Shown in pieces: positions 1 to 12,594 of a stretch of 12,594 nt of DNA; positions within the stretch are counted from its first letter, which is position 1, and the number at the start of each line of letters is the position of its first letter. Position numbers and translations under genes: made by a program. This stretch comes from Candidatus Iainarchaeum sp. (GTDB lineage: Archaea > Iainarchaeota > Iainarchaeia > Iainarchaeales > DTGL01), in assembly GCA_038736825.1 (NCBI GenBank), contig JAVYME010000033.1, forward strand, positions 1-12,594, in the 5' to 3' direction. The notes under the pieces were generated by a model that saw nothing but the letters and a program-made list of their open reading frames with translations, was not told the DNA's origin and did no database searches.

Positions 1-851
1 TCCTTAATGGATTGCGCTGAAGTTACAGTGAAATCCTTTGTGTTTGCTGTAACCTTGCGGGAAACAAGAAGTGCAGAGGTTATTTCCTCAACTGTTTTGT
101 CCACTTTTGAAACATCCTCCACTTGAACTTGAATTGAGGAAAAAACCCCGTTCTCAACATCAGTCACCTCCCATGCACTCTTGTAAGGCATAAAGACAGT
201 TCTGTCATTGCCACCGCCGCCCATTGTCATTCCAGATGGCGCCAGGATTCCAACCACTGTAAAGGTTTGTTTGCCAATTGCAACCCTCCGCCCAAGGGTT
301 ATCGGCTGCTTGAACATTTCATTTGCCACAGCATGGCCTATTACAATGGCTTTTGAGTCACTTGAATTCAAAAGCCTGCCTGTTGCAAGCTTTAAAGTGG
401 ACATTTCCTTCCAAGTGTTGGGATTGACACCGCTAATGCTCACATTTGCTTTTTCTGCAAGGAACGCAAGCTCTGCCCTTCCAGAAACCAGTTCATTGAT
501 GTTTTTCACATTGTTGGTTGAAGCAATAATCTTTGAATCCAAAATGTTAAGCTTTGGGGTTGAAGTTGGCTGTGAAGTCGCCCGCTCTCTCGGCATAAAA
601 TTCCTTTCACCTCCACGCAACATAAAGCCCCCAAAACCTTGGGCTCTATAAGAGCCAGCAGTCACAGTTATAATGTCAGCACCAAAAGATGAAAGTTGTT
701 CATCTATGCTTGCCCGGGCTCCCTCCCCCAATGAAAGTATTGCAACAACTGCAGCCACTCCAATCACTATGCCTAACAGGGTTAACCAGCTTCTAAGCCG
801 CCTGTGCAGAATGCTGTTTACTGCCAATCCAACCAAATCAGTGAATTTCAT
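1..851 (-). CDS. ABC transporter permease, MacB/FtsX type (N-terminal TM helix plus extracytoplasmic core domain); 3' end runs off the window
   Basis: Absent from the ORF track because it is open to the window edge. My minus-strand translation from ATG 851..849 reads MKFTDLVGLAVNSILHRRLRSWLTLLGIVIGVAAVVAILSLGEGARASIDEQLSSFGADIITVT...FTVVGILAPSGM...RTVFMPYKSAWEV. That is the typical MacB/LolCE-type N-terminus: basic stretch, one TM helix, then a large soluble domain. It starts 8 nt after the TGA (862..860) of the upstream gene. Plus-strand ORFs 208..651 and 673..873 are antisense shadows. Confidence 0.8.
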   Translation of the reverse strand, partial: MKFTDLVGLAVNSILHRRLRSWLTLLGIVIGVAAVVAILSLGEGARASIDEQLSSFGADIITVTAGSYRAQGFGGFMLRGGERNFMPRERATSQPTSTPKLNILDSKIIASTNNVKNINELVSGRAELAFLAEKANVSISGVNPNTWKEMSTLKLATGRLLNSSDSKAIVIGHAVANEMFKQPITLGRRVAIGKQTFTVVGILAPSGMTMGGGGNDRTVFMPYKSAWEVTDVENGVFSSIQVQVEDVSKVDKTVEEITSALLVSRKVTANTKDFTVTSAQSIK

Positions 852-859
852 TTCAGCAA

Positions 860-2353
860 TCACTTTGCCCTGAACTTAAAAAAATAAAGAACAAACAAGA
901 CAATGGAAACCACTATTGCGCTCAAAAAAAACACTTGACTGGAATTAAAGTAATAGGCTGCTGCAATAAAAAGGATTGAACAAACTGCAATAACTGCAAT
1001 CATTTTTTTCAGGTTTTTTCTGTCCGCCTTGAAAGTGCAAGCAATCAATGCAAAACCAAGGATTGCACTTAAAGCCATCCACGGCGAAATATCCGCTTGG
1101 CTTGAAGCCCTACTCCTGCTTGCAATAACACTATCAGAAAGCAAAAAAGAGCCTGTCTGGCCCAGCAGAACTGTCTTTCTTGAAGTCTGCCTTTCGCCGG
1201 TTGTGTCAGTGTAATCGATTTCTACAAAAATCGGCTGAACTTGAAGAGAATTACTGTCAAACTGTCTTTGACGGAAAAAATTAGTGTCAGTAGCACTTGC
1301 GGTTCTCGGAAAAGCCCCTCTTTGAGTTTGAGCGTTTTGGGCGAATGGCGGTTCATTGGTTGAAACAGGCGCTTGCTCGCTGCCAGATGCATTTGCTTGG
1401 GTTCTGGTTTGGACTGTAAAGCTTGCCACTGTGAAATCCCCCTTGTTCAAGTTTCCAAGAATTGAAATGTTGCTACCGGAAACCGTGATTCCGTTTTGTC
1501 TGGGAATTCTCGCAATTACCGCTTGAGCGTTATTAGAGCCTATGTTTGCAATGCTGAGTGAAAGCTGTCCTGAAACCAGTTCTGCACTGACTTCAAAATC
1601 AGTTCCCCCGCCAACAATAAGCCCAACCTGCGAATTCTGTGTACGAACACCATTAACATCAAGAAAAGTCATTGTCAGGTTTAAGGGATAAATGCCGGTT
1701 GTAATGTTTGGATCGGCTGCCACAGTATAGGAAATTTTGACAGTTTCTCCTGCCTCAATTGCAGAAACATACTTTTTGTTGTCAGAACCAACTGGCAAAA
1801 TCAAATTGTTTGGCTCAGTCCAAGAGAAAGAAACATTGGAAACCCTGGCTTGCCCGACATTTTTAAGAGAAAAAACAAGCTCGGTCTGGTTTCCAGGATT
1901 TATTTTTTTAGGTTCAGCTGTTACATCAATGTTTTTTTCAATTTTTGCAACAGGAACAGAAAAACTGTTTGTTTGCTCCACAAGGCTGCCGAGATTGTAA
2001 TAATAAATTGTAAGAAATGCTGGATAATAGCCTGGCAAAGTGTCATCCTTTACTTTAAAGCGAAAAATAAGGGTTTTAGTCTGTCCTGGCAGTATTTCCC
2101 TCACACTAACCTTGCTTTGAACATCCTCAAAGTGAACCCCGAGGTCTAAAAAAGCATTCAAGTCAACAACTGAAACGCTTAAACCACGATTCTTTATATC
2201 AACCTTTAAGCTTGCAATATCACCCGCATAAATTGTTCCCGGCAGAAAACTTGTGCCAGTTATTTCAACCAGATATGCATAATCCGCTCCCCTTGCCTGT
2301 GGAAGCAAAACCACAAGCGCTAAAACCGAAAACAAAACAAACAACTTATTCAT
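860..2353 (-). CDS. Large surface protein with repeated CARDB/COG1361-like beta-sandwich domains, a Q/N/S/T-rich linker and three C-terminal TM helices
   Basis: ORF 860..2398. Preferred start is ATG 2353..2351 (MNKLFVLFSVLALVVLLPQARG, a signal peptide), preceded by GGAGG (2365..2361) with a 7-nt spacer. Three copies of the NxGxxxA-type strand motif (SLKVDIKNRGLSVSVV, LVFSLKNVGQARVSNV, LSLSIANIGSNNAQAV). Six N-x-S/T sequons in the ectodomain. Hydrophobic C-terminus (ISPWMALSAILGFALIACTF, MIAVIAVCSILFIAAAYYF, VFFLSAIVVSIVLFVLYFF). Confidence 0.75.
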   Translation of the reverse strand: MNKLFVLFSVLALVVLLPQARGADYAYLVEITGTSFLPGTIYAGDIASLKVDIKNRGLSVSVVDLNAFLDLGVHFEDVQSKVSVREILPGQTKTLIFRFKVKDDTLPGYYPAFLTIYYYNLGSLVEQTNSFSVPVAKIEKNIDVTAEPKKINPGNQTELVFSLKNVGQARVSNVSFSWTEPNNLILPVGSDNKKYVSAIEAGETVKISYTVAADPNITTGIYPLNLTMTFLDVNGVRTQNSQVGLIVGGGTDFEVSAELVSGQLSLSIANIGSNNAQAVIARIPRQNGITVSGSNISILGNLNKGDFTVASFTVQTRTQANASGSEQAPVSTNEPPFAQNAQTQRGAFPRTASATDTNFFRQRQFDSNSLQVQPIFVEIDYTDTTGERQTSRKTVLLGQTGSFLLSDSVIASRSRASSQADISPWMALSAILGFALIACTFKADRKNLKKMIAVIAVCSILFIAAAYYFNSSQVFFLSAIVVSIVLFVLYFFKFRAK

Positions 2354-2741
2354 TATAAAACCTCCTTTCCCTGTTGAAATCTTTTCCAAATTTTTCAAAA
2401 AAAGTCATTCTTAATTCCTCCATTGAAGCGGTTTCAGGAAGACCAAGGGCTTGCTTGACTTCAAGCACTGTTGCTTCCTGAGGCAAACCCATTGCTTGCC
2501 GCACTCTTTGCATGAAAAGGTTTTCATCCATCCTTCTGGGCGGGCGTCCATTGAAATCAGCATTATTCCAATCAGGTGGCAAACCATTGAAATCCCTGCC
2601 TCCCCTGCGCGGGGCAAAATTGCCCGGATTGCTTTCAGCAGGCTTTTGGGTTTGACTTGCACCAGAAGACATTTCAGCACAACCAGCAAACAAAATGAAT
2701 GAAAGGAAAAACAAAAAAGAAAACAAAAAACCGCACCTCAT
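2346..2741 (-). CDS. Small secreted lipoprotein (about 131 aa) with internal duplications, function unknown
   Basis: ORF 2346..2756. Preferred start is ATG 2741..2739 ([21 protein letters not shown], signal peptide with lipobox LFAGC). This ATG overlaps the TGA (2740..2738) of the ATPase gene as ATGA and follows GGAGG (2754..2750) by 8 nt. The track's upstream ATG at 2756 overlaps that SD. Its stop TAA 2348..2346 overlaps the next gene's start region. Confidence 0.6.
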   Translation of the reverse strand: MRCGFLFSFLFFLSFILFAGCAEMSSGASQTQKPAESNPGNFAPRRGGRDFNGLPPDWNNADFNGRPPRRMDENLFMQRVRQAMGLPQEATVLEVKQALGLPETASMEELRMTFFEKFGKDFNRERRFYNE

Positions 2742-3436
2742 TTTTTGCGCCTCCAAAAATCTGACTTAATCAGTCCATCACTCAATTCAACTTGCCTTTC
2801 AGCATAAGCCGCAATATCGTGCTCGTGAGTGACAAGGATAACCGTCTTGCCCTGCTCCTTGTTCAGCTTGCAAATCAAACCCAATATTTCATGGCTTGTT
2901 TTTGTGTCAAGGTTGCCAGTGGGCTCGTCTGCCAAAATTATTTGGGGATCCGTTGAAAGCGCTCTCGCAATTGCAACCTTTTGCCTCTCTCCGCCTGAAA
3001 GTTGGGCTGGCAGGTGAGCAAGCCTTTTTGAAAGCCCTACAAGCCCAGCAAGCTCTTTTGTTCTAATTTCAATAATTTCCTTTTCAAATTCATGAATCCT
3101 CATTGGCAGGGCAATGTTTTCAAAAACATTTAGTGTTGGGTAAAGGTTGAACGTCTGGAAGACAAAGCCTATTTTTTTGCCTCTTATCCTTGCAAGCTTT
3201 GACTCTGAAAGGCGTGAAATCTCGGTTTTCTCCAAAAAAACCTCCCCCTTTGTTGGAACATCAAGCGCCCCCATCATATTAAGCACAGTTGACTTGCCAC
3301 TGCCAGATGCACCAACCACTGCCAGAAAATCACCCTCTTCAACCTCAAGATTTATTCCACGCAGGGCAGTAACCTCTACATCATCCATCTGGTAAACCTT
3401 CCAAACATCCCTTAATTCAAGAACTTTTTTACCCAA
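2738..3436 (-). CDS. ABC transporter ATP-binding protein, MacB/LolD-like (COG1136 type)
   Basis: Walker [11 protein letters not shown]-loop FVFQTFNL, signature LSGGERQ, Walker [10 protein letters not shown]-loop VTHEHD. The ORF is open to ATG 3469, but GGAGG (3448..3444) plus a 7-nt spacer points to TTG 3436..3434 ([15 protein letters not shown]) as the start. The start is uncertain by 33 nt. Confidence 0.9.
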
Positions 3437-3459
3437 TTTAAAACCTCCAAAGAAAAAAA

Positions 3460-3565
3460 TGAAACACATTTAATACTTTGCAACCATTAATAGGTTTAAT
3501 TGTAACAACCTGAAACAAATAATATGGCATTGTGAAACGTGATGAAACATGAAACGACTTGAAAC
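3460..3565. promoter_or_regulatory. Divergent promoter/operator region carrying six exact TGAAAC repeats
   Basis: TGAAAC at 3460, 3511, 3533, 3543, 3550 and 3560, all in one orientation, plus the variant TGTAAC at 3501. AAATAATAT (about 3517-3525) lies ~27 nt upstream of ATG 3549, suggesting a leaderless regulator mRNA. On the minus strand, CTATTAAT (about 3488-3495) is a possible TATA for the ABC operon. Confidence 0.45.
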
Positions 3566-4136
3566 CTTTTTCAATTCCGACAAAAAATATGCAGTGATAA
3601 TGATTCTCTGCTTTATTTACGGCGGATACGCAATCCTTTCATTTTTGCTTCAAGCTTACACCGCCTTTTGGAGAATTGAACTCTTGGGTTTTCCCATGCA
3701 AGGACAGGGAAGCCCGAGAACTGAAGACTTCAACCGTTTCCGGCAACCGGATTCGAACAGGCTTTCAAACCAAAGATTTATCACACAAGAACCGCTTGCA
3801 CAAATAGTTTCCCCTCTCTCACTTTCCTGGCTTTTAAGCGGCATAATCTCTCTTTTGGCTGGACTTTCAATCTGGCACCTCGTAAGAAAAAAAGAAATAA
3901 AAAAAATAAAGCAAGAAACAGCGAACAACCTCCTGCTTCCAGATGAAAGAAAAATAATTGAAACACTCAAAAAATCAAACTTTGAAATGCTGCAGTCAAG
4001 GATTGCCAAAGAAACCGGCTTGAGCAAGGTTCAAGTCCACCGTGCAATTAAAAGGCTTGAAGCCAAAGGAATACTTGAAAAACACACATACGGGCTTTCC
4101 AACAAAATAATGCTGAAAAGAGAGTTTTTTGATTGA
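3549..4136 (+). CDS. Membrane-anchored winged-helix transcriptional regulator (two TM helices, extracytoplasmic loop, C-terminal MarR/TrmB-like wHTH)
   Basis: TM1 YAVIMILCFIYGGYAILSFLLQAY and TM2 LSLSWLLSGIISLLAGLSIWHLV, then a K-rich linker. The wHTH reads LLPDERKIIETLKKSNFEMLQSRIAKETGLSKVQVHRAIKRLEAKGILEKHTYGLSNKIML. ATG 3549 is the first start after an in-frame TGA (3543-3545). This is the only clear plus-strand gene. Confidence 0.7.
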   Translation: MKRLETFFNSDKKYAVIMILCFIYGGYAILSFLLQAYTAFWRIELLGFPMQGQGSPRTEDFNRFRQPDSNRLSNQRFITQEPLAQIVSPLSLSWLLSGIISLLAGLSIWHLVRKKEIKKIKQETANNLLLPDERKIIETLKKSNFEMLQSRIAKETGLSKVQVHRAIKRLEAKGILEKHTYGLSNKIMLKREFFD

Positions 4137-4156
4137 AACTGCCTTTTTAAAACAAG

Positions 4157-4214
4157 CGGCTCGGAATTGGATTCACTCATCACCTTGCATCAGAAAATGG
4201 AATCGTCATCGCCT
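4157..4214 (-). ncRNA. Candidate archaeal C/D box sRNA (2'-O-methylation guide)
   Basis: The minus strand reads GGC-GCGAUGA-like C box (gcGATGA, 4212..4206), 12 nt CGATTCCATTTT, D' CTGA (4193..4190), 6 nt TGCAAG, C' GTGATGA (4183..4177), 12 nt GTGAATCCAATT, D-like CCGA (4164..4161), then GCCGCTTGTTTT. Spacing is the canonical 12/6/12. The palindromic TATA TTTATAAA (4234-4241) is centred ~26 nt upstream and an oligo-T follows. The terminal C and D boxes each deviate by one base (U to C) but keep the GA dinucleotides. Confidence 0.4.
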
Positions 4215-4233
4215 TAAGCAATGGCTCGGATTA

Positions 4234-4241
4234 TTTATAAA
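4234..4241. promoter_or_regulatory. Palindromic TATA-like box TTTATAAA in the convergent gap
   Basis: Exact TTTATAAA. It is positioned ~26-28 nt from the C box-like element on the minus strand and from ATG 4266 on the plus strand. Confidence 0.35.
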
Positions 4242-4379
4242 ATATTTTCTTCAGGCCTTTTTCCCATGTGTTGTGTAAATTCAGTGCCAGCCTGTTCCTG
4301 AGTTCTGGTAAAGCCTTGCGTTGGCTGACTTCATTATGTTTGGTTTGAAAAGATTGCAGAGCCGCCTTTTCATGCTTGG

Positions 4380-4562
4380 CTAAGCTTGGCTTGATTTCTT
4401 TGCAATTGCTTGTTTTTGGTCTTTTAGTCCTTGTTTTTTGAATTCTTCACGCCAGCCCTGCACGCTGCAAAAAAGAAGCGTAACCAAGGTTAATATGCCT
4501 GCCAGGTTAAGAATTTCTTTTGGCGAAGAATAAATAAATGAAGCCAAAAGAACATAGTTCAA
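4380..4562 (-). CDS. Small two-TM protein, or the C-terminal part of the upstream membrane gene (same frame, see findings)
   Basis: TTG-started track ORF with no SD. It is in the same frame as ORF 4698..5288, and all 45 codons between TAG 4700..4698 and TTG 4562 are sense codons that encode a further TM-like segment. Ends with TAG 4382..4380. Confidence 0.35.
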   Translation of the reverse strand: MNYVLLASFIYSSPKEILNLAGILTLVTLLFCSVQGWREEFKKQGLKDQKQAIAKKSSQA

Positions 4563-4697
4563 AAAAACAGAAAGCAGAATCGAAAGAGAAATTATTAAGC
4601 CATAAATAACAAATCCTAGGAACGAGCTAATTTTTGACTCCTTTAGGAATAGCCAGTAGGCTTTTCTCTTCTCTTTTGAATAGGTCAGCCAATCTTG

Positions 4698-5288
4698 CTA
4701 CAAGAAGAAGTATGGTGGAATAGATGCCAAAAGAAACAAAAGGATTGGAAGGGCAGAGGCGCCCAACACACGGAAAAGTATGGGTGAACCCAAAAAAGAA
4801 ATAACCACTGGGGCTGTCTTTTTCAGGGGACCATCCAAATAATAGAATGCCCCCCTGGAATAGCTGAAGGCGGGACCGAAAATTATCAGAATTAAAAAAA
4901 GAAAAAATATAGTAAAAAGCCAAAAAGGCGGAAAAAACAGGACGATCCAGTTTTGAAAAGACCAGCCAGTTACCTCAAAAAAAGAAAAAACCCAGTATAA
5001 AGAGAAAAGACCGAAAAAAATCAAGTAAAAATAGGCATAAACCCCATAGAACCGATGGTATCTTTTTTTTATCTTTCTGACTTTTTGCATGAAGGCTGCT
5101 TGCTTTGAATATTGCTTTTTTCCCATGTGTTCTGGCATAGAAAGCCATAGCGCCTCAATATCTTCTTCTTTGAGATTTGTGTGGGCTGCTTGAACTCCTC
5201 GTATTCCTTTTTGTAGGCTTCCTTGGAAGCCCAAGTTTGCTTTCCAGGGGAATTGCCAAACGGGCAGTAGGCCATAAAAAAACCACAA
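4698..5288 (-). CDS. Polytopic membrane protein of unknown function (start uncertain; ends at an in-frame TAG)
   Basis: Charged N-terminal region (NLKEEDIEALWLSMPEHMGKKQYSKQAAFMQKVRKIKKRYHRF) followed by at least four hydrophobic helices. The track start TTG 5288 has no SD; alternatives are ATG 5138 and ATG 5126. Lies 40 nt downstream of the radical SAM gene on the same strand. Confidence 0.55.
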   Translation of the reverse strand: MWFFYGLLPVWQFPWKANLGFQGSLQKGIRGVQAAHTNLKEEDIEALWLSMPEHMGKKQYSKQAAFMQKVRKIKKRYHRFYGVYAYFYLIFFGLFSLYWVFSFFEVTGWSFQNWIVLFFPPFWLFTIFFLFLILIIFGPAFSYSRGAFYYLDGPLKKTAPVVISFLGSPILFRVLGASALPILLFLLASIPPYFFL

Positions 5289-5328
5289 ATTAGTTGTGTG
5301 AACTGGTTAATATTGGTTTCCTTTCAGG

Positions 5329-6498
5329 TCAAGGTATTATTTCTGGACCGCAAAATTTTGTGTGTTCAAAATCATTGAGGGAGATTCTTTTTTTCTCTAT
5401 GAGTTCTTTTATTTCTGGAAGAACTTCCAAGAGCATTTTTCTGAATTCTTTCACGGATTTGCAGACAAGGTTCCTGCCTTTTTCCGGCCATGGTTTCACA
5501 ATATTTGAGTAAAGGCATCTGCCACCGCAAAACTTGTATATGGTGCAGGAAGGGCATTTTCCGGATACAAAAACTTTTTTTAGTTTTAGGGGGTGTGCTG
5601 TTGCAATGTGTCCTAAATAGAAGTCTTTCATTCCAGCCATTATGGGGCAAGGGGCAATGAAGCCGTTTGTCATGATGCTGTAATTGGCATAGCCTGAACC
5701 GCACCTTAAAAGGCTTTTTTTGCCAAGCAAAAGGTCTTCGGTTGTGTCAAGGAATGGGTAAAAGCGCAATACTTTGCCTTCTTTTTTCATTTTTGAAATC
5801 CAGAATTTCAATAGCCGTTTTGTGTTCGGCAAATAGTTTTCTTCAAGCCATTTCTTGAAATTTTTTCTTTGCTTGAAATCGTTCCAGAAATTGGCGTCAA
5901 TCTGCCAGTGCACTGAAGTGAATGGAAATTCCTTGTTGGATGCAAGGTGTTTTACAGCCGAATAAATATTTGTGTGTTCTGTTATTGTCATTCTTGCAAT
6001 CAATTCTCCCTTGAAGCCATTCCTTTTGATTTTTTTAAGGTTCTCCATTACCTTGTCATAGGTTCCCTTTCCTCGATTATAGTCGGTTAGGGTTCGATTG
6101 CCGTCAAGCGATACAAGTATAGCGCTGAAGCGGTTAACGTATTGTGGCTCAAGCTTGTTTAAAAGCAAGCCGTTTGTCTGCATCATGAACTGTTTTGGAT
6201 TGCATTCTTGCATTATTTTTCTTATCAAGTCCAAGCGAATGGTTGGCTCTCCGCCATAAAAGGTTAGAGTGCTATCTGGGTCTTTTGAAATGAAGTTGTA
6301 AAGTAGGTGAAGGTCATAGGATAGTTCTGCTGGCAGGCTTTCATCCAAGGCGAATTTTTCCATTCTGGGACTGCAAGAGAAGGCTTTTCCACTGCAATAA
6401 TTGCATTGCAGGTTGCAGTTGTTTGAAAGCAGGACATGAAAGTGCAAAGCTTGCCACCAAGTATGCCTAAACCATATTTGCAATGAAAAATAATGCAT
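5329..6498 (-). CDS. Radical SAM enzyme with a complete C-terminal SPASM domain (putative peptide/protein-modifying maturase)
   Basis: CNLQCNYC (C28, C32, C35), GGEPT, and the SPASM pattern C266-x12-G-x4-C284, C315-x2-C318-x5-C324-x3-C328, then C346. From memory it resembles the archaeal AF0577-type putative peptide-modifying rSAM family; this was not verified by search. Confidence 0.85.
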   Translation of the reverse strand: MHYFSLQIWFRHTWWQALHFHVLLSNNCNLQCNYCSGKAFSCSPRMEKFALDESLPAELSYDLHLLYNFISKDPDSTLTFYGGEPTIRLDLIRKIMQECNPKQFMMQTNGLLLNKLEPQYVNRFSAILVSLDGNRTLTDYNRGKGTYDKVMENLKKIKRNGFKGELIARMTITEHTNIYSAVKHLASNKEFPFTSVHWQIDANFWNDFKQRKNFKKWLEENYLPNTKRLLKFWISKMKKEGKVLRFYPFLDTTEDLLLGKKSLLRCGSGYANYSIMTNGFIAPCPIMAGMKDFYLGHIATAHPLKLKKVFVSGKCPSCTIYKFCGGRCLYSNIVKPWPEKGRNLVCKSVKEFRKMLLEVLPEIKELIEKKRISLNDFEHTKFCGPEIIP

Positions 6499-6519
6499 CC
6501 GGCTGAACAGCCGGAATGC
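6495..6519 (-). promoter_or_regulatory. Stem-loop sequestering the radical SAM start codon
   Basis: Minus-strand RNA is 5'-GCAUUCCGGCUGUUCAGCCGGAUGC-3': an 11-bp stem (GCAU+CCGGCUG / CAGCCGG+AUGC) with one bulged U. The AUG (6498..6496) lies in the 3' arm. It is preceded by TTTGTTTTTG just after the serA stop. Confidence 0.5.
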
Positions 6520-6531
6520 AAAAACAAATCT

Positions 6532-7446
6532 TTATTTTTTTCTTTTAAGTTCGGCGATAACTTTTTCCGCTATTTGAATGCCGCAACGGTTTTGTGCTTC
6601 CACTGTTGATGCTCCCAGGTGGGGTGTGTGCACAACATTGTCCAGCCCAATCAAATCCCAGTTTTCCGGTGGCTCTTTTTCGAAAACATCTATTGCTGCG
6701 CCTGCAACCTTTCCGCTTTTTAGGGCATCAAGCAATGCTTTTTCGTCTATTATTCCACCGCGTGCCACGTTTATTACGCGAACTCCTGGCTTCATTTTTT
6801 CAAAAGCCTGTGCATTCAACAATTTAGTGGTTTCAGGGGTTTTTGGCACGTGTACTGTAATGAAGTCGGATTCTTTGAGCAAAGTTTCAAGGTTAACCTT
6901 TTTTGCGCCAACCTTTTTGTAAACCGCTGGTTTTGCATATGGGTCAAAGGCAATTATTTTCATTTCAAAGGCTTTCATTCTTTTTGCAACCTCTTGCCCT
7001 ATTTTGCCCAAACCAATTATGCCCAGAGTTTTTCCGAAAACCTCTGTTCCCTTGAACTTGTCTCTCTCCCACTTCCTTTCAATCAGTGACTGGTGGGCTT
7101 TTGGAATGTTTCTGCATAATGCCAGCATTACTGCAATTGTGTGCTCTGCAGCGCTTATCGTGTTTCCTTCCGGCGAATTAAGAACCTTTATTTTTTTGGC
7201 TTCTGCTGCCTTTACATCAATGTTGTCCAAGCCGGCTCCAGCCCTTCCTATGACTTTCAAGTTGGAGGCGTTTATTATTTCTGCTGTCACTTGAGTGCCG
7301 CTTCTGACTATGAGGGCATCATATTCTTTGATTTTTGCAGCAAGCGCTGTGCCTTTTGATTCAAAGTCTTCTGTGACTTCAAAACCTGCTTTTTTCAGTT
7401 TTTCAACGCCTTCTTTTGCAAGCTTGTCTGTAATTATGACTTTCAC
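6532..7446 (-). CDS. serA: D-3-phosphoglycerate dehydrogenase, short form without an ACT domain (D-isomer 2-hydroxyacid dehydrogenase family)
   Basis: NAD-binding GIIGLGKIGQEVAKRM and catalytic region NVARGGIIDEKAL...DVFEKEP...TPHLGAST, about 304 aa. Preferred start is GTG 7446..7444 (MKVIITDKL), overlapping the upstream TGA (7445..7443) as GTGA, with GGGGG (7458..7454) 7 nt upstream. Substrate specificity is inferred from the family and the neighbouring aminotransferase. Confidence 0.75.
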   Translation of the reverse strand: MKVIITDKLAKEGVEKLKKAGFEVTEDFESKGTALAAKIKEYDALIVRSGTQVTAEIINASNLKVIGRAGAGLDNIDVKAAEAKKIKVLNSPEGNTISAAEHTIAVMLALCRNIPKAHQSLIERKWERDKFKGTEVFGKTLGIIGLGKIGQEVAKRMKAFEMKIIAFDPYAKPAVYKKVGAKKVNLETLLKESDFITVHVPKTPETTKLLNAQAFEKMKPGVRVINVARGGIIDEKALLDALKSGKVAGAAIDVFEKEPPENWDLIGLDNVVHTPHLGASTVEAQNRCGIQIAEKVIAELKRKK

Positions 7447-8540
7447 TTGCACACCCCCTTTGCCATTAAATCATCTATTGCGCTTGTCAGTTCTTTCAAG
7501 TCTTTCAGGTTGAGGTCTCCCATGTGGGCTATGCGGAAGGTTTTTTGCTTGAATGGCCCATAGCCATCGCTTATGTGCATTTTTTTCTTGGCTAAAGCAT
7601 TATTGAGTTTTTCAACGTTTACGAGATTGGCGTTGTTGTCCACTGCTGTCAAGGTTATGGAGCGATAGCCTTCTTCTGCAAACAAGCCAAAGCCTTTTTT
7701 CAAAGCCCACTTGCGCGTGAATTCAGCCATGTCTGAGTGCCTCTTGAATCTTTTTTCAAGGCCTTCCTTCATGAAGGCGTCAAGCTGGGCGTTCAATGCA
7801 AAAATGTGTGATATTGATGGCGTGGATGGAGTCTGGTTTTTTTCAGCGTATTTTTGGAAGGTGCCAAGGTCAAAGTAATAGCCCCTGTTTGGGATTCTCT
7901 TGTGTTTTTCCATTGCTTTTTCGCTTACAGCGAAAACTGTTAGTCCTGGCGGCAAACCAAAGGCTTTTTGGACTCCTGCAAAGAGCAAGTCTATGCCAAG
8001 CCTGTCCATTTCAATTTTTACGCCGCTGAGTGAAGAGACAGCGTCAACCATAAAGGTAACATTTGGAAAGTCTTTCATTACCTTGGCAATGCTTTCCATT
8101 TCAACCATTACGCCTGTGCTGGTTTCATTGTGCACTAGTGTGAGGGCGTCAAATTGTCCTGTTTCAAGTTTTGCTCTTATTTGGTCTGCTTTGACTGCTT
8201 TTCCTGGTTCGACTGAAATGATTTCTGTTTCTTTTCCGCACAATTTCACTACTTCAGCCCATTTGCTGCTGAATTCGCCCATTACACAGCAAAGCGCTTT
8301 TTTTTCCACAAGGTTTCTTGCTCCAAGCTCCCATATTCCAGTGGAAGAACTAGTGCTCAAAAAAACATGCTGGTTTGTGTAAAGCAATTGCTTTAGTTTT
8401 GGAATGGTGTCAGCGTACAAGTCCATGAATTCTTGGCTTCTGTGCCCTATCATGTAATGCGACATTGCTTTCAATATTGGTGCTTTCACTTCCACTGGCC
8501 CGGGAATAAACAATTTTTTGTATTTCATTTTCACAGCCAT
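7443..8540 (-). CDS. Class V (AGXT-type) PLP aminotransferase, likely an archaeal-type phosphoserine aminotransferase
   Basis: FIPGPVEV near the N-terminus, HNETSTGV, VDAVSSLSG, and the PLP-lysine motif GVQKAFGLPPGL. Preferred start is ATG 8540..8538 (MAVKMKYKKL), 9 nt after GGAGG (8554..8550). Confidence 0.8.
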   Translation of the reverse strand: MAVKMKYKKLFIPGPVEVKAPILKAMSHYMIGHRSQEFMDLYADTIPKLKQLLYTNQHVFLSTSSSTGIWELGARNLVEKKALCCVMGEFSSKWAEVVKLCGKETEIISVEPGKAVKADQIRAKLETGQFDALTLVHNETSTGVMVEMESIAKVMKDFPNVTFMVDAVSSLSGVKIEMDRLGIDLLFAGVQKAFGLPPGLTVFAVSEKAMEKHKRIPNRGYYFDLGTFQKYAEKNQTPSTPSISHIFALNAQLDAFMKEGLEKRFKRHSDMAEFTRKWALKKGFGLFAEEGYRSITLTAVDNNANLVNVEKLNNALAKKKMHISDGYGPFKQKTFRIAHMGDLNLKDLKELTSAIDDLMAKGVCK

Positions 8541-8561
8541 TCTATTCAACCTCCAAATATT

Positions 8562-9824
8562 TCATTCTATTTTTCTGTAAAAAAGCCCGCTTAGAATTTT
8601 GGGGTAAAAATAAGTGCTTTTTTGCGGCATTCTTTGCCCGGCAAGACAGCTGGCAACCACTTGTTCTTTCTTTGTTGCATTCATCAAGAAAGCAATATCG
8701 TATTTGCCGGAGTCTGCTTTTTTTAATGCTTCCCCGAAATCCTTTACATACTCTATGTGTTCTTTTCTTGCAACTTGTTCTGCGGAAATTCCAAGAATTC
8801 CTTCTATCACTATTTTGTGCAATATTGAAACGTCCAGTTCTCTTATTTCTTTTACAATTCCTGGCATGAGCGCAGAAAGGTCAACATTTTTTTTCAAGGA
8901 GAAGAGAAGGGTTTTTCCCTTGCTTCTTGCAATAAAGGCTTTTTCTTTTTTTAAAGCAAGCTTTTTTTCAAGCTGTTTTGCATTTCCCCTTATTTCCTTT
9001 ACATTGAACCATTTTGCCAGTTCTTCTTTAAATTTTTTGAAATCAAATTCTTTCAAGCCAAACAAGAGCCTGTGAGTGGGCAAAACTATCAAGCCGGGGT
9101 CTTTCATTTCAACCAAGAGAATTGGCATTGAATCCGCTTGCGGATTTTCTTCAAAATATTTTAAATGGGTTTCATAGCGGTGGTGGCCGTCTGCAATGAA
9201 GAGTTTTTTGTCTTTCATTGTTTCTGCAATAATGCTTATTTCTTTTTCATCGGTTATCGCCCAAAGCCTGTTTTTGATTCCATTGTCGTCTTTTACTTCA
9301 AAAAGGGGTTTTTTCTTGCAGGTTTTTTCAAGTATTTTTTTGATTTTTCCAGATTTGTCACTGTAAAGGGCGAAAATGCATTCAGTGTTTGCTTTTGTGG
9401 CTCTCAATAGTTCAAGCCTGTCTGCTTTTGGACCGCTTAGGGTGAATTCGTGTGGCAAAATGTTGCCTTGCTCGAAAGGCTCAAGTTTTACAAGCGGAAT
9501 AAAGCCTTTCCGGCGGTATTTTTTTCCTTTAAGGGTGTAAATTTGCTCGTAAGCGTAAATTGCAGGGCTTTCCTCTCTGAAAAGAATGCCTTTTTCTTCC
9601 CAGTTTTTCAGGTTTTCAGCTGCTTTTGCGTAAAGATTGAATTGCTTGTTTTCCTCTATTTCTTCGCCTAGTGTGACATGAATGCAGTTATAGGGGGATC
9701 TTTTGCGCAATTCCTCTCTGTATTCGCGCGAAATTACATCGTATGGCGGCGCTACAAGGTTTTCCGGCTTGCCTGCCTTTTTGAAATCATACCTTAGCGC
9801 TTGAAAAGCCTTGATTTGAACCAA
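8562..9824 (-). CDS. DUF1015 (COG4198) family protein, function unknown
   Basis: Family hallmarks recognised from memory: N-terminal IKAFQALRY, APPYDVIS, LPHEFTLSGPKADRLELLRATKAN, IADGHHRYETHLKY, LPTHRLL. Preferred start is TTG 9824..9822 (VQIKAFQALRY), 8 nt after GGGGG (9837..9833). Confidence 0.75.
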   Translation of the reverse strand: MVQIKAFQALRYDFKKAGKPENLVAPPYDVISREYREELRKRSPYNCIHVTLGEEIEENKQFNLYAKAAENLKNWEEKGILFREESPAIYAYEQIYTLKGKKYRRKGFIPLVKLEPFEQGNILPHEFTLSGPKADRLELLRATKANTECIFALYSDKSGKIKKILEKTCKKKPLFEVKDDNGIKNRLWAITDEKEISIIAETMKDKKLFIADGHHRYETHLKYFEENPQADSMPILLVEMKDPGLIVLPTHRLLFGLKEFDFKKFKEELAKWFNVKEIRGNAKQLEKKLALKKEKAFIARSKGKTLLFSLKKNVDLSALMPGIVKEIRELDVSILHKIVIEGILGISAEQVARKEHIEYVKDFGEALKKADSGKYDIAFLMNATKKEQVVASCLAGQRMPQKSTYFYPKILSGLFYRKIE

Positions 9825-9839
9825 AAAAAACGCCCCCAA

Positions 9840-9938: not shown

Positions 9939-10700
9939 TTATTTTCTTTTTTCAGTTTTGCCAAAGCCTAGCTCCACTTTGAACTCTAAAACTGTTTTTT
10001 TGAATACATAAGTGCTGATTGAGGCAATCACAAATGCTAAAAACAAAAAGATTGTGCTGGCAAAGTCAAAAGTGTTGAGCAGCATGAAACTGGCGTAATG
10101 CGTTGCCACTGCATAACTGTTGAGTATTTGCCCTGTGAGAAGCAACAGGCTTGCAGTTATCAGGAAAACCGGCATTGGATAAATGGAATTGAATTCTTTT
10201 GTGTAAGAGCCAACAATCCAAAAAGAGAAAGCCAAAAACAAGTAGGCTAGAGAGCAAAGCAGGATTGTTGCAAAAGCAACAAAGCTTGTGGTGTTCAAAA
10301 GCAATATTGTATCAGAAGCAAGGAACACCAGGAAAGCAAAAACCATTGTTTTGGGCATCATCATTTTAACCTTCAAGTTCCTTTTAAAAGAATAAGAGGA
10401 CATTAAAAGGAAAACAGAGGACATTACAAGAAAACCGCTTGAAATCAGTTCTTCTATTCCGCTGAGCGGTTTTCCCAAAAAATAATAGGACTGGATTTCA
10501 GCTATGGGGCTTATTAGCAAAAGAGGAAGGCTGACATACACTAAAAGCCAGTCGGTTTTCTTTTTAGTGAAGGCTTCCACTCTCTTGAGTGCATCAATCA
10601 AAAAATAAAAAGCAAACCAGCAAATCAGGCTTCCAGAAAAATAAAAAAGAATCCTTAGCTGGATTATTCCATAAGGATCAAAAGCGTTCATTTTCACCAT
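9939..10700 (-). CDS. Seven-TM integral membrane protein without a soluble domain, unknown function
   Basis: 253 aa with seven hydrophobic segments by eye, approximately residues 12-35, 51-69, 86-104, 118-135, 139-163, 176-193 and 205-233. Starts at ATG 10700, 28 nt after the upstream TAA. Confidence 0.65.
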   Translation of the reverse strand: MVKMNAFDPYGIIQLRILFYFSGSLICWFAFYFLIDALKRVEAFTKKKTDWLLVYVSLPLLLISPIAEIQSYYFLGKPLSGIEELISSGFLVMSSVFLLMSSYSFKRNLKVKMMMPKTMVFAFLVFLASDTILLLNTTSFVAFATILLCSLAYLFLAFSFWIVGSYTKEFNSIYPMPVFLITASLLLLTGQILNSYAVATHYASFMLLNTFDFASTIFLFLAFVIASISTYVFKKTVLEFKVELGFGKTEKRK

Positions 10701-10728
10701 CTTTGCTTCAAATATACGCTGTTTTAAC

Positions 10729-11334
10729 TTATATTCTTTTCCCTGTGCCTTTCTCCACTGCCTCCTGTTTTAGCTCTTCAAGGTTTATTACCTTGTCAAC
10801 AAATTGGCACATTTGGTTTATGAGGTGCTCTTCTGTTTCCTTTTCAAGGGAAATAAAAATCCCTTTAAGGCGGAGAGTGCGCATTTTTCCAATAAGGAAG
10901 TGCGCAAATTTTGTCACAGTGCCTGCTTGATTGTAAACCAGCAAAGTGCTTATAGAGTCAAAGAACAAAAACTTGTTCTCTCCCTTTAAAGCATCTATTG
11001 CCTTGTTCAAAGAAATGCTTATTTCTGTCAAACCATGCGGTGAAGCAATAAATGAAACATTTGCCCTTTCACTGGTTTTCGCTCCAGTTGTTGCAGAAAT
11101 AGTGTCAATGAAATAAAATTTTTTTGGGTCAATGCCGTTTTTTTCAAATAAGGCGACAAGGTTTTCATAAGGCCTGTTGAGTGTCACATAAACGCACTCG
11201 TTTGATTTTTTTTTCACTAAATAGGAAAGTATTTCAAGGTTGACTTTAAGGTAGTCTGTGGCTTTTACCACGATTAGCACTATTTGGTCTTCTTCAAGAG
11301 AACCTAATTCTTTCAAAAGCCTGCTTTCAGCCAT
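10729..11334 (-). CDS. Degenerate (Walker A-less) KaiC/RecA-fold paralog, predicted non-catalytic
   Basis: Co-linear with the upstream KaiC-like protein: ECVYVTLNRP vs GCYISLEES, KFLFFDSISTLLVYN vs RLVIDSISLISLYF, KGIFISLEK vs GCTTIALSE. VKATDYLKV replaces the P-loop and NR replaces the catalytic EE. Start is ATG 11334 (AGGT 8 nt upstream) or TTG 11343. Confidence 0.7.
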   Translation of the reverse strand: MAESRLLKELGSLEEDQIVLIVVKATDYLKVNLEILSYLVKKKSNECVYVTLNRPYENLVALFEKNGIDPKKFYFIDTISATTGAKTSERANVSFIASPHGLTEISISLNKAIDALKGENKFLFFDSISTLLVYNQAGTVTKFAHFLIGKMRTLRLKGIFISLEKETEEHLINQMCQFVDKVINLEELKQEAVEKGTGKRI

Positions 11335-11344
11335 TTTTTTCAAC

Positions 11345-12190
11345 CTAAAACTTGGTGAAAAGCTCTTCTGTTGGGTAAACCACTATGCCTCTGCCTGCCT
11401 CTATCTGGAACGGGTGAACCTTGAGGGAATGATTTGTTGCACGCATTTTTATCACTGAAATTCCCCTATGGAAAACATTTTCTTTTTTTATCATGTAAAG
11501 CACGATTAAGCCGTCAGCAACAAATTCTTCCACTCCAAACCTGCTGAACTTGCCTTCTTGGGCTGGAACCTCTGAAAGAGCAATTGTAGTGCAACCCATG
11601 TTTTTAATGGATTTTTCCAAGTCAAAGATTGCCCTGCGAACCTTGAACTGGTCTTGAAAATAAAGGCTTATAAGAGAAATAGAGTCAATTACAAGCCTTT
11701 CAGCGTTAACTTTGGCGACAGCATCCTCTATTGTCATCAAGAGCTCGTCAAAATCATACAATTCCGGCTTTCTGAGAACAAGATCGCCTTCAGCTATCAT
11801 TTTATTGATGTCCCAGTTGAAAATGCGCATTTGCCTTATTGTTTCCTCTATGGATTCCTCTAGTGAAATATAACAGCCACGTTGCCCCATTTCTAAGCCC
11901 TTGACAAGGAAATTCATTGCAAAAGTGCTTTTTCCGGTTCCAGTTGAACCGCTTAAAAGCACAAGAGAATCCTTTGGAATGCCTCCTTCCACCAATTCGT
12001 CAAAGCCCTCTATGCCAGTGGGCATGCGGTTTATGAAAAGCGGTGCCTCTGCACTAGCCTTTGCTGGTTCTATCACAATCTCTTTCTTTGAAGTCACGGT
12101 TTGCTTTGCTTTTTTTCCAGTTCCCAAGTAAGGAAGATCCACTTCTTCCAGTTTTGGCTCTTCACTTGCATCATCTTCGTCGGCTACCAT
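11345..12190 (-). CDS. Single-domain KaiC-like (RadA/RecA superfamily, COG0467-type) ATPase with a charged N-terminal extension
   Basis: MPTGIEGFDELVEGGIP, Walker A GSTGTGKST, SLEES, Walker B RLVIDSIS. Preferred start is ATG 12190 (GGAAGTGG 5 nt upstream); the track start is TTG 12205. Stop is TAG 11347..11345. Confidence 0.85.
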   Translation of the reverse strand: MVADEDDASEEPKLEEVDLPYLGTGKKAKQTVTSKKEIVIEPAKASAEAPLFINRMPTGIEGFDELVEGGIPKDSLVLLSGSTGTGKSTFAMNFLVKGLEMGQRGCYISLEESIEETIRQMRIFNWDINKMIAEGDLVLRKPELYDFDELLMTIEDAVAKVNAERLVIDSISLISLYFQDQFKVRRAIFDLEKSIKNMGCTTIALSEVPAQEGKFSRFGVEEFVADGLIVLYMIKKENVFHRGISVIKMRATNHSLKVHPFQIEAGRGIVVYPTEELFTKF

Positions 12191-12206
12191 TAAAACCACT
12201 TCCAAG

Positions 12207-12594
12207 TCACTTCCATAAAGGCTTTTTATGCTTTCTGCCTTGCTCTTCCCTCCATGCTTGATAGGAATAAATCACTGGCACAATTGAAAAAACCAACACT
12301 CCAGCAATCAATGCAATAAAAGCCATAGAGGATTGCACAAATGCTAAAATGAAAATAAAAACAGCCATCAAGGCAAAACAATAAGAGCCAATCTTGTGGG
12401 TTTTTTCCCAAACAAAGTCAGAGCTCATAGTCCAAGGCGTGCGAATTCCAACAAACCAGTTTCTCTTGGATTTTCGCAAAAGCAACGCTATGTAAAAGAA
12501 AAGAACAGATAGGGCTGGCAAAAGCATTAATTTTATCTCTATTTGCATTCCCAGCCCTGCCAGGATAGTGAGAGCGTGCAAATAAAGAAGAAAA
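12207..12594 (-). CDS. SdpI/YhfL-family membrane protein, probably 5'-truncated by the window edge
   Basis: Family signature RNWFVGIRTPWTMSSDFVWEKTHK followed by two TM helices. The reading frame stays open upstream of the track's TTG 12581 to the window end. TGA at 12209..12207. Confidence 0.65.
   Translation of the reverse strand, partial: FLLYLHALTILAGLGMQIEIKLMLLPALSVLFFYIALLLRKSKRNWFVGIRTPWTMSSDFVWEKTHKIGSYCFALMAVFIFILAFVQSSMAFIALIAGVLVFSIVPVIYSYQAWREEQGRKHKKPLWK

Follow-up and report, generated by a model that had tools for sequence, protein, structure and literature searches.

The 12,594 nucleotides (nt) of contig JAVYME010000033.1 from Candidatus Iainarchaeum sp., here referred to as the window, carry on the minus strand a gene for an enzyme with a radical S-adenosylmethionine (SAM) core and a SPASM domain. 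The enzyme is an intact TIGR04084 (AF0577) radical SAM/SPASM protein, the match to this family being far beyond chance. The explanation that we modestly favour is that it is a stand-alone modifying enzyme of the housekeeping type in anaerobic archaea, probably transcribed separately, with a substrate that is encoded elsewhere, and that its proximity to serA on one side and to a block of ABC transporter and CARDB genes on the other is incidental gene order within a single Iainarchaeum (Diapherotrites) lineage. An earlier note on this DNA had instead read the first half of the window as the parts list of a peptide- or protein-maturation locus.

Motifs and family assignment

The open reading frame (ORF) reaches 296.5 bits with the model TIGR04084/rSAM_AF0577 (curated cutoff 225, E = 2.2e-88), with ORF residues 22-382 covering model positions 1-339 of 347, and 50.4 bits with PF04055 (cutoff 29.5, E = 3.8e-13). 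A hidden Markov model (HMM) search of this kind had been proposed in the earlier note, and the resemblance to the AF0577-type family (named after Archaeoglobus fulgidus AF0577) that was stated there is borne out by it. The window protein therefore adds one member to an already catalogued family without assigned function. A literature search found no characterisation of this family; it returned no paper on TIGR04084 and only unrelated matches to AF0577, in line with the earlier description of its substrate as uncharacterised.

Invariance was read from two alignments, one of 20 sequences (A1) and one of 64 sequences extending down to 26% identity (A2). The cysteines C11, C15 and C18 and the seven SPASM cysteines are invariant among the 64 family members, and the segments HWQ, RCG.G, CGGRCL, GGEP and the C-terminal E-x-I-P, all present in the window protein, are invariant in the family alignments. 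The SPASM pattern reads C-x12-G-x4-C, then C-x2-C-x5-C-x3-C, then a distal cysteine (Cys266/Cys284, Cys315/318/324/328 and Cys346 when the longer ORF of 389 amino acids (aa) is numbered); the region includes CGGRC and aligns with the SPASM domain of CteB (5wgg). Motif positions, the PF04055 and TIGR04084 matches and the invariant cysteines together confirm that both the radical SAM core and the SPASM signature are complete. From its cysteines, the SPASM domain is predicted to hold two auxiliary [4Fe-4S] clusters. With regard to length, cysteine pattern and the C-terminal E-[IV]-I-P, the protein resembles thousands of archaeal members; it differs in that the usual C-terminal NGCEIIP reads CGPEIIP. 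Since the CX3CX2C motif lies at residues 11-18, there is no N-terminal RiPP recognition element (RRE; RiPP, ribosomally synthesised and post-translationally modified peptide) or other additional domain.

Gene start and separation from serA

The ORF at 5329-6498 (minus strand) encodes 389 aa if it is read from ATG 6498. Its homologues, however, are 366-376 aa in length and their N-termini align with TTG 6447 of the window, a codon preceded by GGTGG at a distance of 7 nt; gene calling on this contig gives a product of 372 aa (P0001). Because the lengths and starts of the homologues agree with the called product, the start is placed at TTG 6447. The true gene is thus probably 5329-6447, and the stretch 6448-6498 is probably a 5′ leader and not coding. 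The distance from the serA stop to the gene would then be 84 nt and not 33 nt; the earlier note was correct in placing both genes on the same strand, while its 33-nt gap is probably to be replaced by the longer one.

Directly 3′ of the serA stop, at 6515-6498, is a hairpin of 7 bp with five G-C pairs that is followed by a T-run, and ATG 6498 falls inside this hairpin/T-run stretch. The hairpin comes from a consensus scan alone, in which 5 sites were found where 3.2 were expected in the region, and it is suggestive of a candidate terminator between the serine genes and the radical SAM (rSAM) gene. The latter would then be transcribed separately from serA. Given a probable gap of 84 nt containing such an element, it is unsafe to state, as had been done, that there is little room for a promoter of its own.

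Homologues and their distribution

The closest relatives are found in metagenome-assembled genomes of Ca. Iainarchaeum/Diapherotrites (78-83% identity). A next tier consists of many proteins at 53-57% identity, those with a named source being from Methanoregula or Methanomicrobiales, and Bathyarchaeia homologues have identities of 43-55%. Among themselves the enzymes of Iainarchaeia, Methanomicrobiales and Bathyarchaeia are 45-57% identical. A second search with a Nanoarchaeia member as seed gave proteins of Nanoarchaeia, Pacearchaeota and Methanofastidiosum, likewise named TIGR04084. The family thereby spans Methanomicrobiales, Bathyarchaeia, Methanofastidiosa, Iainarchaeia and Nanoarchaeia. 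A library clustered at 50% identity gave only 127 clusters at E<=1e-30, which makes the family a compact one.

In a neighbour-joining tree, the enzyme of Iainarchaeia (DPANN) clusters with Methanomicrobiales-type lineages, apart from the enzymes of Nanoarchaeia (also DPANN). This placement points to horizontal transfer or, alternatively, to deep paralogy among the family members.

Fold and comparison with characterised enzymes

An AlphaFold2 model built on 40 homologues is of good confidence, with a predicted local distance difference test (pLDDT) score of 82.8 and a predicted TM-score (pTM) of 0.85. Its best Foldseek matches in the PDB are full-length chains of the anaerobic sulfatase-maturating enzyme (anSME) anSMEcpe (TMq 0.70, TMt 0.72, E 5e-13), followed by CteB, ChlB, SkfB, BlsE and SuiB, with SpeY also in the list. 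By sequence, CteB (5wgg) is the best match in the PDB (E 2e-20), and no other solved structure is a noteworthy relative by this measure. Among NCBIfam models, TIGR04084 is followed by PapB (115.1 bits), the SCIFF maturase (85.7) and QhpD (80), then by many other RiPP maturases and anSME (58.8). All the models after TIGR04084 are far under their cutoffs and, judged by these scores, the enzyme belongs to no characterised family.

The ranthipeptide maturase PapB (NF047865), CteB/SCIFF (TIGR03974) and QhpD (TIGR03906), all of which form thioethers, share with the window enzyme the combination of an rSAM domain and a seven-cysteine SPASM layout. The cutoffs which it misses are 340 for PapB, 425 for the SCIFF maturase and 453 for QhpD, and it also lacks a conserved QhpC-like partner. 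The PapB match begins at model position 6 of 330, so that this model, too, is without an extra N-terminal domain. With CteB the enzyme shares a single-cysteine 'CGSG...PC' segment, with one cysteine between the first SPASM cysteine and the 'PC' motif, but the N-terminal extension of CteB (~95 residues) is absent from it. The anSMEs (TIGR03942; PDB 4k36-4k39) resemble it in having ~370 aa, an rSAM barrel followed by SPASM, and no leader-binding domain; here the agreement is in fold and domain layout only, with ~20% identity and a score well below the cutoff of 349, and no sulfatase gene is found in the window. The first auxiliary cluster in the anSME structure has two cysteines in the segment where the TIGR04084 family has only C249. 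As a stand-alone maturase of a protein encoded elsewhere, anSME is probably the closest analogue for the way in which the enzyme works.

Two other identities were rejected. Gms (GMGT synthase) is an rSAM/SPASM enzyme restricted to archaeal anaerobes, with three [4Fe-4S] clusters and a lipid substrate, and its homologues exceed 420 aa and carry a bridging hairpin as well as an N-terminal domain of six helices (PMC11186832); this architecture rules it out for a protein of 372 aa with CX3CX2C from residue 11. A viperin-type defence enzyme was likewise excluded, as PADLOC pVip gave 44 bits over the rSAM core alone (residues 7-146) and NF038283 40.8 bits against a cutoff of 180.

Genomic neighbourhoods of the family

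Neighbourhoods were taken from 40 GTDB contigs (one genome per species), 80 metagenome contigs retrieved with a 16-sequence alignment as query, and 11 exact-protein look-ups; individual loci are designated L001, L002 and so on. All-against-all BLASTP served to cluster the ORFs of 124 loci, the rSAM proteins were grouped into 27 lineages at <65% identity, and recurrence was counted over the 119 loci with a full rSAM ORF in these 27 lineages.

No conserved partner emerged. A generic ABC ATPase, present in 5 of the 27 lineages, is the non-overlapping neighbour family that recurs most often, and outside the window lineage these ABC neighbours are of different subtypes, with 305-481 aa and at ~1.3-6.4 kb from the rSAM gene. 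A Pfam count over 133 flanking proteins, to which one locus per lineage contributed at most three from either side, gave no family more than three times. No conserved adjacent small ORF, whether Cys/Asp-rich or another kind of precursor, was found across the 27 lineages. The earlier note had proposed to look for a recurrent small ORF or partner near the closest homologues, and had stated that its reading would fall if their neighbourhoods shared none of the partner genes; the survey gave this outcome. The enzyme is thus an orphan without a conserved partner, and the parts list of the window is coincidental.

The upstream neighbour varies even within the window lineage: it is the serine operon in the window, speE/speH in L001, leuA-leuCD-leuB in L044 and a divergent ribulose-phosphate epimerase gene in L045. 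Adjacency of serA and the rSAM gene is seen in the window alone; in L001, the closest relative, the two are split by speE/speH, and there the speE-fusion/speH genes are 13 nt from the rSAM gene. The inserted genes of L001 (869-2469) encode a 416-aa fusion of AdoMet decarboxylase and spermidine synthase and a 111-aa AdoMet_dc protein.

Small ORFs with a limited distribution occur downstream of the rSAM gene in other clades. One Bathyarchaeia clade has a Tyr/Pro/Gln-rich repeat ORF ~180 nt downstream (L006 9300-9527, L012 9311-9589 and six other loci), whose putative product has repeats of the YQPPPQ type, some with Cys and some with a Gly/Tyr-rich tail; ORFs in another frame of this region also cluster. 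A conserved 77-aa protein with the pattern HDCD...GAC...HRCIC and a C-terminal ENPDW is encoded in 9 of the 12 Methanomicrobiales-type loci with room for it (L042 9492-9725), ~370 nt downstream of the rSAM gene and on the same strand, and matches no Pfam family. As general substrates both were rejected, being lineage-specific and absent from the window.

Proposed mechanism and substrate

A compact, strongly conserved and widespread family which has an anSME-like layout and no conserved partner gene speaks for a cellular substrate that is itself conserved, and against a natural product. By analogy with its relatives, the substrate of the enzyme would be a protein or peptide. In the proposed mechanism, the N-terminal [4Fe-4S] cluster (C11/C15/C18) would reductively cleave SAM to give a 5′-deoxyadenosyl radical, which would take a hydrogen from a side-chain carbon of the bound protein or peptide segment. 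The chemistry that follows would be of one of two types, each with a precedent among related enzymes. The open iron site of an auxiliary cluster could hold a substrate cysteine, leading to a thioether between the cysteine sulphur and the carbon as with CteB, PapB and QhpD; the single cysteine in the first SPASM segment, as in CteB, would by analogy provide such a site on auxiliary cluster I. Alternatively, as in anSME, the reaction could be a two-electron oxidation in which the SPASM auxiliary clusters carry an electron away. As the enzyme has neither an RRE nor a leader-binding domain, it would recognise the substrate directly, in the manner of anSME with sulfatases.

Several points weigh against this explanation. 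The protein or peptide substrate is drawn by analogy from relatives which are all far below their family cutoffs, and SPASM enzymes with non-peptide substrates exist, such as AhbD and, acting on lipids, Gms (PMC11186832). One family member is fused to a kinase of the APH type, a family that mostly phosphorylates small molecules. The lineage-specific small ORFs downstream of the gene in some clades make local substrates possible there. Finally, the terminator and promoter call is from the consensus scan alone, and read-through from serA is possible.

Linkage to diphthamide and translation genes

Diphthamide biosynthesis, encountered on low-GC Nanoarchaeia-type contigs, is the only specific theme which recurs across lineages. 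In L122 (6786-9113), a Dph6-like gene (PF01902), a gene for a class-I glutamine amidotransferase (GATase) and the rSAM gene follow each other with overlapping or 1-nt junctions, and the same GATase-then-rSAM order is found in L116 (18-1713), where the contig is cut. Dph2 (PF01866) overlaps the rSAM start in L103 (3572-5613) and is convergent with the rSAM gene in L124 (3679-6012), while in L107 (186-2643) a Dph2 fragment lies directly upstream and aRF1 is 1 nt downstream of the rSAM gene. A Dph6-like gene is also located 5.5 kb upstream in L125 (1176-8528). In total, five Dph2/Dph6 genes occur in ~94 kb of such flanks, compared with ~0.2 expected by our own rough estimate, which assumes 1-Mb genomes with one copy per gene and is not corrected for shared ancestry. 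When six further long contigs of Nanoarchaeia/Pacearchaeota were sampled independently, two of them (L126, L129) had Dph2 within ~3 kb. In the neighbour-joining tree the Dph-linked loci fall in two clades and have several different arrangements.

Other neighbours are also related to translation. In L128 (4785-6110, 10166-11110) and L129 (5790-8555) the rSAM gene is positioned between secE and spt5/nusG-L11, interrupting an information-processing cluster that is strongly conserved elsewhere, with aIF5A 2.4-3 kb upstream. Genes that could supply polyamine or hypusine synthesis are found as well, namely speE/speH (L001, with the short gap described above), PvlArgDC (L130), and deoxyhypusine synthase together with agmatinase (L045).

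These linkages raise a more specific form of the favoured explanation, in which the enzyme acts on some part of the translation apparatus, most likely in connection with a translation-factor modification (aEF2/diphthamide or aIF5A/deoxyhypusine) that it would add or complete under anoxic conditions. We regard it as tentative and rather doubtful. The corresponding proposal for the whole family, that TIGR04084 enzymes are hitherto unrecognised modifiers of the archaeal translation machinery whose target is either aEF2, where they would act on the diphthamide system or alongside it, or aIF5A (for example in an oxygen-independent deoxyhypusine step), is to be considered unlikely. If true, it would explain the presence of the rSAM gene beside Dph2/Dph6-like genes and inside secE-spt5/nusG-L11 in Nanoarchaeia, and also why TIGR04084 occurs as a single, highly conserved, stand-alone gene of anaerobic archaea. 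However, the flanks of Bathyarchaeia- and Methanomicrobiales-type loci, ~1 Mb in all, show no Dph linkage, and the window shows none either. DPANN genomes are moreover small and rich in translation genes, with mixed housekeeping operons being common, and part of the Dph signal may be one inherited synteny block. To our knowledge, the diphthamide pathway has no missing step that would need such an enzyme, and the TIGR04084 family is missing from part of the archaea, in which diphthamide is almost universal. Among the leads obtained, the Nanoarchaeia linkage to diphthamide and secE-spt5/nusG genes is the best handle on what this family of thousands of members does.

Small-molecule substrates and the maturation-locus reading

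A further alternative, also unlikely in our view, is that the enzyme acts on a small molecule or cofactor, either in a step tied to the metabolism of SAM-derived nucleosides (5′-methylthioadenosine (MTA) or 5′-deoxyadenosine) or of sugar phosphates, or on a metabolite derived from serine or phosphoserine. One indication is P0126 (692 aa), the representative of a cluster at 50% identity, in which an APH-family domain (PF01636, residues 36-230) is fused N-terminally to a full TIGR04084 enzyme (332-692). This fusion is a single case, possibly a mis-assembly or gene-calling artefact, and a separate APH kinase gene is found 2.5 kb from the rSAM gene in L131. Among the neighbours are genes for enzymes that use SAM and release MTA (speE, Dph2), and the RuBisCO large subunit is encoded near the rSAM gene in L121, L122, L131 and L021; each of the small-molecule-type neighbours, however, recurs in 3-4 lineages at most. 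In the window the rSAM gene comes after serA, an adjacency that is unique to the window and interrupted by speE/speH in the closest relative. Non-peptide SPASM or twitch enzymes are known (AhbD, Gms), and BlsE and SpeY appear among the Foldseek matches, but the best relatives by both sequence and structure all act on proteins or peptides.

Very unlikely, and largely refuted by the neighbourhood survey, is the reading in the earlier note of window 1-6498 as a RiPP-like or protein-maturation locus, in which the membrane ORF, the exporter and the regulator are partners of the enzyme and an unannotated precursor, the CARDB protein or the 136-aa protein is its substrate. With the exception of the membrane ORF the listed genes are real, HMM matches confirming both the MacB-type exporter and the membrane-anchored regulator; the rSAM/regulator/ABC order is kept in three Iainarchaeum genomes, and the nearest HMM relatives of the enzyme are RiPP maturases. 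These three genomes have enzymes that are 78-83% identical, so that synteny among them carries little weight, and even here the slot between the rSAM and regulator genes holds three different contents. The block of helix-turn-helix (HTH) regulator, ABC, 136-aa, CARDB and MacB genes was not found in the other 26 lineages, and no neighbour family recurs in more than 5 of 27. A neighbouring secreted protein as substrate, which the earlier note had offered as an alternative, is not supported either, as those genes accompany the enzyme only in Iainarchaeum relatives. The membrane ORF is without homologue. As the earlier note had stated, no annotated precursor is evident in the window; its small ORFs include no conserved one and no six-Cys SCIFF peptide. 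The AlphaFold2 model opens with the first barrel strand and has no RRE or other leader-recognition domain. Thus neither co-location with a conserved precursor and exporter nor an RRE on the maturase, the general hallmarks of RiPP clusters, was observed, and the case cautions against inferring such clusters from the parts list of one locus.

Downstream region

The features of the window are listed in Table 1. Downstream of the rSAM gene, the space up to the regulator gene is a variable insertion hotspot, since its content differs in each of the three related contigs: a 1.19-kb ORFan region in the window, 93 nt in L002 and an unrelated gene for a 449-aa lipoprotein-like product in L003. The 196-aa ORF in this space had been described as a polytopic membrane gene lying 40 nt from the enzyme gene. 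An ORF with hydrophobic segments does exist there, but its status as a gene is doubtful, as no homologue was found at E<=0.01 among 5.8 billion proteins, nor does any called gene from this contig correspond to it. It is missing from the slots of the two closest relatives (L002, L003) and was rejected as a partner gene. In 4137-5328, the plus-strand AT skew runs counter to that of the minus-strand genes on either side.

By tblastx, none of the small ORFs of at least 20 aa in 4100-5340 has a conserved counterpart in L002 or L003, apart from ~95 nt beside the regulator gene. This element, located immediately 3′ of the HTH regulator gene, is 85-90% identical across the three Iainarchaeum contigs while the remaining spacer is unrelated, and it could serve as a conserved terminator or have a regulatory role. 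No Rfam family and no tRNA were detected in the window. Beyond the slot, the regulator/ABC/136-aa/CARDB/MacB block is common only to the genus-level Iainarchaeum relatives L001, L002 and L003.

Table 1. Features of the window with their coordinates, strand and supporting details (residues in the numbering of the 372-aa product).
Feature	Position	Strand	Details
Radical SAM/SPASM gene, TIGR04084 (AF0577) family	5329..6447	-	372 aa, TTG 6447 start (probable); stop codon 5329-5331
In-frame 17-codon extension up to ATG 6498	6448..6498	-	No counterpart in closest homologues; holds GGTGG
CX3CX2C (CNLQCNYC), ligands of SAM-binding [4Fe-4S] cluster	6394..6417	-	Residues 11-18 of 372 aa
GGEPT, SAM-binding 'GGE' motif	6241..6255	-	G65, G66 and P68 invariant in 64 sequences
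SPASM region, C249, C267, C298, C301, C307, C311, C329	5461..5703	-	Pattern match and invariance
C-terminal E-I-I-P, family-wide signature	5332..5343	-	E369 nearly invariant, P372 invariant across 64 members; pLDDT <50
Hairpin TCCGGCTGTTCAGCCGGA then TGCATTATTT	6498..6515	-	Directly 3′ of serA stop; consensus scan
Variable 1.19-kb slot between rSAM and regulator genes	4137..5328	.	Holds ORFans only
196-aa ORFan with hydrophobic segments	4698-5288	-	40 nt downstream of rSAM gene
Conserved ~95-nt element	window about 4137-4250; L002 3624-3682; L003 2217-2311	.	Three-contig comparison
Membrane-anchored winged HTH regulator (DUF7343)	3549-4136	+	HMM match
ABC ATPase	2738-3469	-	HMM match
136-aa lipoprotein-like ORF	2346-2756	-	Module member
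CARDB protein	860-2398	-	Module member
MacB/FtsX permease, N-terminus	about 852 to 1	-	Cut by window edge
Short SerA, 306 aa, without ACT domain	6532-7452	-	TIGR01327 422.9, below cutoff of 454
Class-V aminotransferase	7443-8549	-	Pfam/NCBIfam match
DUF1015	8562-9839	-	Pfam/NCBIfam match
Polytopic membrane protein, 253 aa, without family	9939-10700	-	Window gene run
DUF7504/KaiC-like protein	10729-11343	-	Window gene run
KaiC-like ATPase	11345-12205	-	Window gene run
SdpI-family membrane protein	12207-12581	-	Window gene run

Upstream region

DUF1015 has been proposed to be a replacement for SerB, named 'SerBK', that is typically encoded with serA/serC (bioRxiv 10.1101/2024.10.14.618325). Judged by domain content, the DUF1015, aminotransferase and SerA genes (6532-9839) form a self-sufficient serine pathway operon that matches the proposed SerBK/SerC/SerA route. 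As these three genes already complete the route, the rSAM enzyme is not needed to finish serine synthesis. The operon would be an archaeal (Iainarchaeia) example of the SerBK/SerC/SerA route. Upstream of it is a run of four further genes on the minus strand (9939-12581).

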